Shown here: positions 26,717 to 28,277 of the stretch, piece by piece
How positions within the stretch are numbered: the stretch's first letter is position 1
How the letters are laid out: the number at the start of each line of letters is the position of its first letter
Source: Bacteroidota bacterium
Lineage (GTDB): Bacteria > Bacteroidota > Ignavibacteria > Kryptoniales > JAKASW01
Assembly (NCBI GenBank): GCA_021812985.1
Contig: JAKAMG010000013.1
Coordinates: 586 to 64,585, forward strand
Direction of reading: 5' to 3'
Length of the DNA stretch: 64,000 bases
The notes under the pieces: generated by a model
Seen by the model: the letters and a program-made list of their open reading frames with translations, nothing else
What the model was told of the DNA's origin: nothing
The model's database searches: none
Program-made: the position numbers and the translations under genes

Positions 26717-27037
26717 AGATAGTTCCTCTTGGTGCTTCGTCTTATCAAGTGTCGATCTGCTTAGCCAACTCGCCTAAGTTAAATGCCGTATGAGTAATCT
26801 CGATCTATTTGAAAGACTTCAAGAAAGTTTAACAGAAGAACATATCTGCCTTGAATGTCGATGCGCTTCGAACCGTTTAACGTAATGACACAGATCGAAT
26901 TTTGCAATGGCAAGCGGACCGGGGATTTGTTTGTGAGGCCTGCCGTGGCTCAGTCAAAATCCATGACAAAAGATTCGCAGCTGTTGAGCCGCTCTATACT
27001 GGTACGGCATGTTGAGGGGGAAGAGCAACTTGCTGGG

Positions 27038-27110
27038 TAGCGCTAACGGGAGTCGAACCCGTGTTTTCGCCTTGAGAGGGCGACGTCCTAGGCCACTAGA
27101 CGATAGCGCC
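27038..27110 (-). tRNA. tRNA-Glu (anticodon CUC)
   Basis: 73 nt with a hand-folded cloverleaf. Acceptor GGCGCTA/TAGCGCT, D arm GTCT..GGAC, anticodon arm TCGCC-CTCTCAA-GGCGA, T arm ACGGG-TTCGACT-CCCGT. CCA is not encoded. Confidence 0.85.
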
Positions 27111-27115
27111 ATGAG

Positions 27116-27195
27116 AATTCAAAATTTCAAATTCTCAATTCTAAATGTGGGAAGGATTACCCAATTCAAAATTGTGAATTTAGGATTCAAAATTC
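27116..27195. repeat. Three exact copies of ATTCAAAATT in the AT-rich tRNA-Glu/tRNA-Gln spacer
   Basis: Copies at 27117-27126, 27164-27173 and 27186-27195. On the minus strand each reads AATTTTGAAT. Confidence 0.8.
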
Positions 27196-27204
27196 CGAGA
27201 AAAG

Positions 27205-27277
27205 CTGCCCGGCTAGGGCTCGAACCTAGACTTTCCTGATCCAGAGTCAGGCGTGTTGCCAATTACACCACCGGGCA
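27205..27277 (-). tRNA. tRNA-Gln (anticodon CUG)
   Basis: 73 nt. Acceptor TGCCCGG/CCGGGCA (U1-A72, discriminator G, as typical for tRNA-Gln). D arm GTGT-AATTGGCA-ACAC, anticodon arm CCTGA-CTCTGGA-TCAGG, T arm CTAGG-TTCGAGC-CCTAG. CCA is not encoded. Confidence 0.88.
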
Positions 27278-27494
27278 ATTATTCATCAAACTCTTTGTAA
27301 ACGAACGAGGCTTTTCCCGCCTGGGGCGGGACGTATTGCCACGCACACCACCGGGCAATTATTCTTCAAACTCTTTGTAAACGAACGAGGCTTTTCCCGC
27401 CTGGGGCGGGACGTATTGCCAGGCACACCACCGGGCAATTATTCTTCAAACTCTTTGTAAACGAACGAGGCTTTTCCCGCCTGGGGCGGGACGT
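27255..27494. repeat. 80-bp tandem repeat x3: tRNA-Gln upstream leader plus the first ~25 nt of the tRNA
   Basis: Period is exactly 80 bp. ttgcca...acaccaccgggcaatt recurs at 27255, 27335 and 27415. The leader segment attattcNtcaaactctttgtaaacgaacgaggcttttcccgcctggggcgggacgt recurs three times with a single mismatch. Confidence 0.92.
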
Positions 27495-27749
27495 GTCTCC
27501 TGCATCGGCTTCAATAATCCGCGAATTCCGCCATTCCTTAGCGGTCGCCGAAAAATGACACCAAAATTTAGCTCTTCCATTCCAATTTCCCAAGAGACTT
27601 TTGTCCCAATACTGTTAGAAATCAGAATGAATGAGATGTGCCCTCGCCAGGGACCGCAGGCCAAGCGAGTGAAAGGCCTCCGATCTGCCGCAATCCCTTC
27701 CAGCGGCAGGAGTTACAAGCCCCTCTGTCGCCAATTGAAATTGAGAGGC

Positions 27750-28277
27750 TTACTGATGAGTCGATTCGTACGCCTCAACTCCCTTTGTTATCGCCTCCTT
27801 CGCTGAGCGCGCGGGCTCCCAACCGAAACTCTTGACGAACTTCCCTTCGAGCTCCTTGTACGTCTCAAAGAAGTGTTCCGCTTCACGGAGGAAGTGCTTT
27901 GCCACGTCCGTTATGTCAAACACGTGGTTGTAGCGGGGGTCGAGAGAAGGGACCGCAAGTATCTTGCTGTCTGAACCTTTCTCGTCCTTCATTACAAGGA
28001 CACCAACAGGACGGGCGCGTAGCAGAAGCCCTGTCTGAAGAGGTTCCTCGTTGAGGACCAGAACATCCAATGGATCGCCATCTTCCCAAAGTGTGTGAGG
28101 AATGAATCCGTAAGCAGTTGGGTAATGAACGGCGGAGTACAACACGCGATCCAGCCTGAACACTTCCAGAACCGGATCATATTCGATCTTAGTGTGAGTT
28201 CCTTTCGGGATTTCGATAATCACGTTGACTTCTTCAGGAGCTTTCTCTCCTACGGGAAGATCTTTCAGGTTAGGCAT
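27750..28277 (-). CDS. ppa: Inorganic pyrophosphatase (family I)
   Basis: 175 aa. Carries EDGDPLDVLVL and VLVMKDEKGSDSKILAVP. Confidence 0.93.
   Translation of the reverse strand: MPNLKDLPVGEKAPEEVNVIIEIPKGTHTKIEYDPVLEVFRLDRVLYSAVHYPTAYGFIPHTLWEDGDPLDVLVLNEEPLQTGLLLRARPVGVLVMKDEKGSDSKILAVPSLDPRYNHVFDITDVAKHFLREAEHFFETYKELEGKFVKSFGWEPARSAKEAITKGVEAYESTHQ

Follow-up and report, generated by a model that had tools for sequence, protein, structure and literature searches.

Intergenic minisatellites with a variable number of tandem repeats (VNTR), such as the mycobacterial MIRU-VNTR loci, have units of 40-100 bp and differ in copy number between close strains, and they are used for strain typing. 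It has been proposed that duplications armed with microhomology are the usual origin of bacterial tandem repeats, and at loci with 1x/2x/3x variants in natural isolates microhomology arms were reported in >90% of the bacterial cases (bioRxiv 10.64898/2026.02.28.708716). A tandem array next to a tRNA gene has been described at the distal end of the tyrT-tyrV locus of E. coli, where a 178-bp repeat is present x3.14 in the rttR/tpr region; one unit encodes the small RNA rttR, and the repeat also yields the small ORF tpr (Bosl & Kersten 1991, as cited in PMC3318445). For tandem arrays of tRNA 5' fragments in bacteria our literature search found no direct precedent, and the matches that it returned were mitochondrial repeats.

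Here we analysed an 80-bp tandem array that carried the 5' part of a tRNA-Gln(CUG) gene and lay directly upstream of the complete gene. The term window refers to the whole 64-kb stretch of DNA that was analysed. In our view, the array was probably a population-polymorphic minisatellite (VNTR) that arose by microhomology-mediated tandem duplication (MTD), and its extra units probably acted as a passive extension of the tRNA leader.

Structure of the array and its neighbours

On the minus strand, the ppa gene was followed by a 255-nt spacer, three 80-bp units, the rest of tRNA-Gln(CUG), a 92-nt spacer and tRNA-Glu(CUC) (Table 1). Each unit consisted of a 55-nt leader, GTCCCGCC-CCA-GGCGGGAAAAGCCTCGTTCGTTTACAAAGAGTTTGA(A/T)GAATAAT, and of 25 nt that were equal or similar to positions 1-25 of tRNA-Gln. 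The arrangement was leader, TGCCCGGTGGTGTGCCTGGCAATAC, leader, TGCCCGGTGGTGTGCGTGGCAATAC, leader and complete tRNA-Gln(CUG), and the proximal unit alone ran on into the complete tRNA. The three leaders had a single difference, namely A, A and T at -8 (27285 in the proximal copy). Tandem Repeats Finder reported a period of 80 with 2.9 copies, 98% matches and no indels at 27265-27494, and a repeat search of the window returned three 83-nt copies with a spacing of 80/80 at 27252-27494. The 25-mer hairpin core had 3 occurrences in the window, whereas 0 were expected from shuffles, and the 80-bp unit was confined to this one locus within the window. The preliminary description of this DNA had reported a triplicated 80-bp unit of tRNA-Gln leader and tRNA 5' end, with a leader of about 55 nt, a CCCGCC-CCA-GGCGGG hairpin and copies differing at one position. 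All of this was present, with coordinates off by <=2 nt; its range of 27255-27494 covered the same 240 nt shifted by 2.

Table 1. Features of the tRNA-Gln(CUG) locus; positions refer to the window
Feature	Position	Strand	Description
ppa (inorganic pyrophosphatase)	27750..28277	(-)	ORF and Pfam PF00719; upstream neighbour, anchor for finding related loci
Candidate promoter TTGGGA-17 nt-TAAATT	27565..27593	(-)	8/12 matches; about 70 nt upstream of the array; putative, weak
Upstream microhomology arm ACACG	27492..27496	(-)	Same pentamer as tRNA positions 22-26
Unit 1 (distal)	27413..27492	(-)	Leader 27492-27438 and pseudo-5' fragment 27437-27413, D-loop GCCT
Leader hairpin UCCCGCC-CCA-GGCGGGA	27475..27491 (unit 1), also 27395-27411 and 27315-27331	(-)	7-bp, GC; in MFE and centroid folds of every unit
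Unit 2	27333..27412	(-)	Leader 27412-27358 and pseudo-5' fragment 27357-27333, D-loop GCGT
Unit 3 (proximal)	27253..27332	(-)	Leader 27332-27278 with T at -8 and true tRNA-Gln positions 1-25
tRNA-Gln(CUG), complete	27204..27277	(-)	ARAGORN; Rfam RF00005, 63.2 bits
Downstream microhomology arm ACACG	27256-27252, inside tRNA-Gln	(-)	80 nt from the upstream arm in the one-unit allele
tRNA-Glu(CUC)	27034..27111	(-)	ARAGORN; Rfam, 64.4 bits

The upstream fragments were not called as tRNA by ARAGORN or Rfam, both of which called the complete tRNA-Gln and tRNA-Glu only. At the gathering and E<=1 modes, Rfam returned from 26950-27800 nothing except these two tRNAs and noise. The fragments were without a complete cloverleaf: they ended at position 25, and G14 replaced the conserved A14.

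A relaxed sigma70 scan found no promoter-like site in the 92-nt spacer between the two tRNA genes, and tRNA-Glu(CUC) was probably co-transcribed with the upstream tRNA-Gln. The same spacer contained two direct repeats of ~31 nt (27116-27193) that were 74% identical and rich in AATTCAAAATT/TTTGAAT motifs. Among the long non-overlapping ORFs of the window, 42/48 were on the minus strand, and the tRNA pair had the same orientation, presumably that of replication.

In a set of species-representative genomes, the closest ppa matches came from MAGs labelled Candidatus Kryptoniota or 'Bacteroidetes bacterium' (72-89% amino-acid identity). According to a synteny search with ppa on the genome contigs, the order ppa-tRNA-Gln-tRNA-Glu was kept only in the nearest ppa relative, the sister species L001. 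It had a single tRNA-Gln copy without a tandem repeat, and its leader was almost entirely different and nearly unalignable. The first 42 nt of its tRNA-Gln, including the duplicated 5' part, were identical to those in the window, and the sole difference between the two tRNAs was a compensated pair in the T-stem.

Copy number in sibling strains

The proteins of ppa, the response regulator and a redoxin gene were used as exact queries, and they recovered the same locus from NCBI MAGs, ENA assemblies and Logan contigs that came from other samples. The flanks differed by 6-34 SNPs per 10.1 kb (0.06-0.34%), both between the window and the other haplotypes and among the latter. Within this narrow divergence, the distance from the upstream anchor to the tRNA took three values in steps of exactly 80 nt, corresponding to one unit (L092, L095/L103, L096, L098/L104 and L100), two units (L093/L102, L097 and L081/L094) or three units (L099 and the window). 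Multi-unit alleles were found in 5/10 assemblies; all assemblies were short-read, and the copy numbers are therefore lower bounds. The preliminary description had proposed a comparison of the locus in related genomes and had taken variable copy number, with no transcripts from the upstream units, as a mark of neutral slippage; variable copy number was the outcome among the sibling strains.

The multi-unit alleles were distinguished by the fragment variant (GCCT or GCGT, with or without G9U) and by leader variants, which formed five distinct but mutually consistent combinations of units in independent assemblies. It could be argued that the array was an assembly artefact, or that strain variants had been collapsed or expanded during metagenome assembly, since all data came from short-read metagenome assemblies and assemblers are error-prone at 80-bp repeats. 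However, the variants that distinguish the units were <141 nt apart, so each allele required k-mers that would be present only if that allele was in the reads. Moreover, the alleles held different fragment variants, and the collapse of one array was thus no explanation. The Logan contig L082 (k=31) ended exactly at the first 31-mer common to the units, where a branch point was predicted. An artefact, which had been listed among the first explanations, was refuted by these independent alleles and retained only a very slight probability. The 80-bp tandem array was real, and its copy number was polymorphic within the species.

In sample ERZ27237541, contig L105 seemed to carry an element integrated in tRNA-Glu, and in contig L100 tRNA-Glu was followed by a ferredoxin gene. 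Both contigs left the locus within tRNA-Glu (L100:10390-10420 and L105:11990-12060), on either side of a common 24-mer, GTCGCCCTCTCAAGGCGAAAACAC, and continued into foreign DNA that was high-GC in one contig and AT-rich in the other. They looked like reciprocal chimeras, in which the assembly had joined tRNA-Glu genes from different organisms, and an integrated element was rejected.

Probable origin by microhomology-mediated duplication

In the one-unit alleles, the segment that was duplicated elsewhere was bounded by the pentamer ACACG, with the two arms exactly 80 nt apart. The upstream arm stood in the context GGAG-ACACG-TCCCGCC and the downstream arm, which followed the leader, in the context TGCCCGGTGGTGTAATTGGCA-ACACG-CCTGAC, with GGCA immediately before the arm. 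Both arms were seen in L092, L095, L096, L098 and L100.

This arrangement suggested the following scenario. In the ancestral one-unit state, ACACG would have occurred twice, just upstream of the leader hairpin and at positions 22-26 of tRNA-Gln(CUG). A template switch during replication, or slippage, from one arm to the other would have doubled the segment from -55 to +25, and the product would have been a leader, the first 25 nt of the tRNA, a second leader and the whole tRNA. The orphan 25-nt fragment would then have changed in its D-arm (A14G, A15C, U16C/G and C23U). Finally, the 80-bp units would have recombined unequally or slipped against each other, so that closely related strains came to have 1, 2 or 3 copies.

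All distal fragments (7/7, from five array alleles) had G14, C15 and U23 in common, where the true tRNA had A14, A15 and C23; the D-loop accounted for two of these changes and the D-stem for one. Because the duplicated 5' part was the same in L001 and in the true tRNA, the fragments represented the derived state. The three common changes also pointed to a single origin and to a founding duplication older than the strain diversity. On the other hand, the nearest haplotypes differed in copy number: L092 (1x) and L097 (2x) were separated by 6 SNPs per 10 kb, and L096 (1x) and L099 (3x) by 7 SNPs per 10 kb. Thus, expansion and contraction, or exchange between strains, appeared to be fast relative to point mutation. 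Some of the 1x alleles were probably secondary contractions, with the qualification that consensus contigs from metagenomes can be mosaics of haplotypes. The earlier suggestion of a recent slippage duplication was therefore correct in part. The one-unit allele with ACACG at both ends and the alleles of 1, 2 and 3 copies argued for slippage, and the changes in copy number were recent, but the founding event was not, since G14, C15 and U23 were present in all fragments.

Probable position of the promoter

The pattern TTG-N19-21-TAnnnT showed an enrichment of about 4-8 times in front of long ORFs in the window, and the Bacteroidetes -7 motif TAnnTTTG had 0 occurrences in 7 kb of upstream regions of the window. 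Sigma70-type rules were therefore a reasonable guide. Since the TAnnTTTG motif was missing, we no longer read AGAGTTTG in the leader as a Bacteroidetes-type promoter.

A relaxed scan (8/12 matches) of the minus strand from ppa to tRNA-Glu returned a single site, TTGGGA-17-TAAATT, which on its own was not significant against shuffles. L001 had a counterpart, TTGTAA-16-TAAATT, at L001:4761-4788. In a global alignment of the ppa-tRNA spacers from the window and L001, the clearest conserved block was this TTG(G/T)(G/A)A-N16/17-TAAATTT site with its downstream neighbourhood; the site was trailed by a GGCG..GGAA.GCGG stretch, and it was the only block conserved between the spacers of both species. 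This block was a likely promoter and leader start for the tRNA pair.

A consensus scan of the minus strand found no sigma70-like -35/-10 pair inside the units, with the caveat that promoter rules for Kryptoniota are not established. Since a conserved promoter-like block was located upstream of the array and no promoter was seen within the units, the units probably only lengthened the leader of the pre-tRNA. We concluded with moderate confidence that they would lie in the transcribed leader and would be removed by RNase P cutting at the true +1. According to this model, the extra units are no genes and most likely belong to a 5' leader whose transcription would begin at a promoter located about 70 nt before the first unit; RNase P cleavage would discard them, and the array would be neutral or nearly so. 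At most, it might modulate the processing of the pre-tRNA.

Variation and folding of the units

Variation was examined in 16 units from 9 haplotypes. Segregating sites made up 6/80 positions of the distal units and 1/80 of the proximal units; over 12.4 kb of flanking sequence they made up 0.6%. Within the locus, constraint was thus lowest in the extra units, and this argued against an essential role. All 10 variable positions, fixed or segregating, fell within -12 to +23, and the first 43 nt of the leader, with the hairpin and the TTTACA box, were invariant in 16/16 units, including the distal ones. These 43 nt could be functional in every copy; their invariance could also have come about if recombination homogenised the longest identical stretch.

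Of the four changes in the fragments, three (A15C, U16C and C23U) extended a hairpin, AUUGCCCGG...CCUGGCAAU, that would sequester the orphan acceptor strand. Its folding energy was -11.2 or -9.9 kcal/mol, versus -5.4 kcal/mol when the corresponding part of the true tRNA was folded, and 4 random substitutions reached -11.2 in only 1-2% of trials (P about 0.01-0.02; post hoc). These changes hinted at selection rather than pure drift, although this observation and that of the invariant leader were both post hoc and concerned few events. The idea that the fragment changes form a decoy-hiding hairpin was suggestive, but outside the contingency-locus reading given below it was set aside, because the test was post hoc and because the Omnitrophota array described below was without this feature. 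A-specific mutagenesis between tRNA and fragments, as in diversity-generating retroelements (DGR), was rejected in view of the changes themselves (A>G, A>C, U>C/G and C>U).

The distal unit of L081 (GCA_027400635.1) contained a clustered four-base change at L081:3829-3835, TTTGAAG>TCTGGTT at -12..-7, together with G9U in the fragment, in a background that was otherwise 99.5% identical. It may represent a multi-nucleotide mutation or a conversion event.

A similar array in Omnitrophota

We scanned metagenomes for two copies of the first 13 nt of tRNA-Gln at a distance of 45-75 nt and obtained 9 loci. Eight of the nine were rejected as unrelated coding or palindromic tandem repeats, and L090 alone was tRNA-related. 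When viral contigs were searched for the same 13-mer pattern with a distance of 15-45 nt, only two 12-nt repeats came up, both of them unrelated. Since the scan was built on one 13-mer, it demonstrated recurrence and held no information on specificity for tRNA-Gln. In two unrelated metagenome contigs (L086:411-700 and L087:5067-5344), we observed arrays of 65-72-nt units around the palindrome GCCACCGGCTTGCCCGGTGGTGT; these were REP-like intergenic repeats that shared the tRNA 13-mer by chance.

The names of its GluRS relatives placed the L090 organism in Candidatus Omnitrophota. The locus was seen again as L109 in another sample, and the Logan contig L110 broke inside the repeat. At L090:3547-3650 (minus strand), the gltX stop codon was followed by two identical 44-bp units (TGCCCGGTGGTGTA and 30 nt) and by a complete tRNA-Gln(CUG); each unit comprised the first 14 nt of the tRNA-Gln and GCGAAGCGGAGCGTAGCACACAAATTATAT. 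Because the units were wedged between the gltX stop codon and tRNA-Gln, there was no room for a promoter. They had no stable fold, and relatives at 80-89% GluRS identity had gltX-tRNA-Gln without an array.

Alternative explanations

One alternative was a site-specific recombination scar, that is, the att site of a tRNA-targeting mobile element; tRNA genes are common integration sites. We gave this explanation next to no chance. The array duplicated the 5' end and the leader rather than the 3' end, and its copies were directly adjacent, with no DNA between them. There was no integrase or transposase among the Pfam-annotated neighbours for about 10 kb on either side, and a comparison of the 80-bp unit with viral contigs and with the phage collection gave no match. 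The preliminary description had already set the array apart from an integrase scar and from CRISPR, and we agree on both. In the latter case, the units were head-to-tail direct repeats that abutted each other, the whole 80 bp was repeated without unique spacers, and cas families were absent from the Pfam annotation of the neighbours. Another of its proposals, a tandem promoter array boosting tRNA-Gln transcription, found no support. In its broader form, this reading holds that the units are tandem promoters or a contingency locus in which every unit has a promoter or an activating element and unit number sets the expression of tRNA-Gln(CUG) and tRNA-Glu(CUC), and we regarded it as unlikely. 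It would account for the 43 invariant nucleotides at the start of every unit, distal ones included, and multi-unit alleles were frequent. Furthermore, a GTTCG..TTT(A/T)CA block at about -20 to -30 was common to the window leader and the otherwise different leader of L001. However, no unit had a legally spaced -35/-10 pair. Within the unit, TTTACA was at -24..-19 and the A/T-rich hexamer AATAAT at -6..-1, and either of them as a promoter element would place the start site inside the tRNA: with TTTACA the -10 would fall on the first bases of the tRNA, and AATAAT abutted its +1. Four changes at -12..-7 were tolerated in the distal unit of L081, the Omnitrophota array began about 5 nt past the gltX stop codon with units too short for a promoter, and the conserved promoter-like site was located upstream of the whole array.

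The extra units might instead be functional RNA modules, either as stable small RNAs resembling 5' tRNA fragments or as decoy acceptor strands that titrate RNase P or compete with the true 5' strand, so that copy number sets the rate of pre-tRNA maturation. The exact 13-nt acceptor/D-stem strand was kept in both the Kryptoniota and the Omnitrophota arrays, and the fragment mutations strengthened a hairpin that hides the acceptor strand. Against this stood the lack of any Rfam family match for the units, their unremarkable folding z-scores (-0.7 to -1.5), the z-scores of +0.8 to +2.0 for the Omnitrophota units without stable structure, and the fact that the distal units were the most variable part of the locus. 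One-unit alleles were common, hence such modules would be dispensable. We considered functional RNA modules very doubtful, and no observation pointed to the small RNAs resembling 5' tRNA fragments that the preliminary description had listed. A related possibility, to which we attached a low probability, was that the array serves as a contingency locus of tRNA supply. Every additional unit would bring a decoy acceptor/D-arm strand to the pre-tRNA, compensatory mutations would hide this decoy in a hairpin, and a copy number of 1-3 would tune the maturation of tRNA-Gln(CUG) and the co-transcribed tRNA-Glu(CUC). If this were true, the independent array in Omnitrophota would imply that modules of this kind have evolved repeatedly in tRNA-Gln leaders, and an effect of copy number on maturation would define a new kind of contingency locus. 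Nothing that we found required it. The invariant 5' part of the units, the fragment changes that strengthened the hairpin and the separate case in Omnitrophota together left a small chance that copy number tunes tRNA maturation.

Implications

Read as a minisatellite that arose by MTD, the locus provided a clear natural example of duplication through microhomology, with the 1x, 2x and 3x states all present in one wild population of an uncultured bacterium and with one arm in a tRNA gene. For annotation, it explained odd tRNA 5' pseudo-fragments without mobile elements or CRISPR-like systems. The array can also serve as a typing marker in strain tracking of this Kryptoniota-like population, and it marks a spot where assemblers break or miscount.

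Comparison with known systems

The distal repeat of E. coli tyrT-tyrV was similar in architecture, although not by homology. Both were tandem arrays abutting a tRNA gene, with a terminal tRNA fragment and a non-coding flank in each unit. In MG1655 we found a period of 178 with 3.1 copies, each with the 3'-terminal 19 nt of tRNA-Tyr, AATCCTTCCCCCACCACCA. The E. coli array was thus a mirror image of the Kryptoniota array, with the 3' end and trailer in place of the 5' end and leader, and its unit was 178 bp rather than 80 bp long. In addition, the E. coli repeat has known products (rttR and tpr), whereas the Kryptoniota units are known here from sequence alone.

The Omnitrophota locus (L090/L109) had a comparable layout: tandem units of the tRNA-Gln(CUG) 5' end (14 nt) and leader-like sequence were placed directly upstream of the complete tRNA, and the fragment also diverged from the tRNA in the D-loop. 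It differed in its phylum and in its 44-bp unit without a hairpin, and there was no copy-number variation in the two assemblies examined.

Like the mycobacterial MIRU-VNTR loci, the Kryptoniota array was intergenic, in the 40-100 bp range and variable in copy number between very close strains. MIRU form dispersed families at many loci, whereas the 80-bp unit occurred at one locus in the window and was derived from local sequence. No essential difference separated the array from the loci at which MTD gave rise to tandem repeats (bioRxiv 10.64898/2026.02.28.708716). Here, too, there was a single-copy allele with short direct arms (5 nt in this case), 1x, 2x and 3x alleles in a natural population, and head-to-tail units without spacers. 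The only peculiarity was that one arm was located inside a tRNA gene, so the extra units carried a tRNA 5' fragment. Thus, the array looked like an ordinary microhomology-mediated minisatellite and not a new genetic system.
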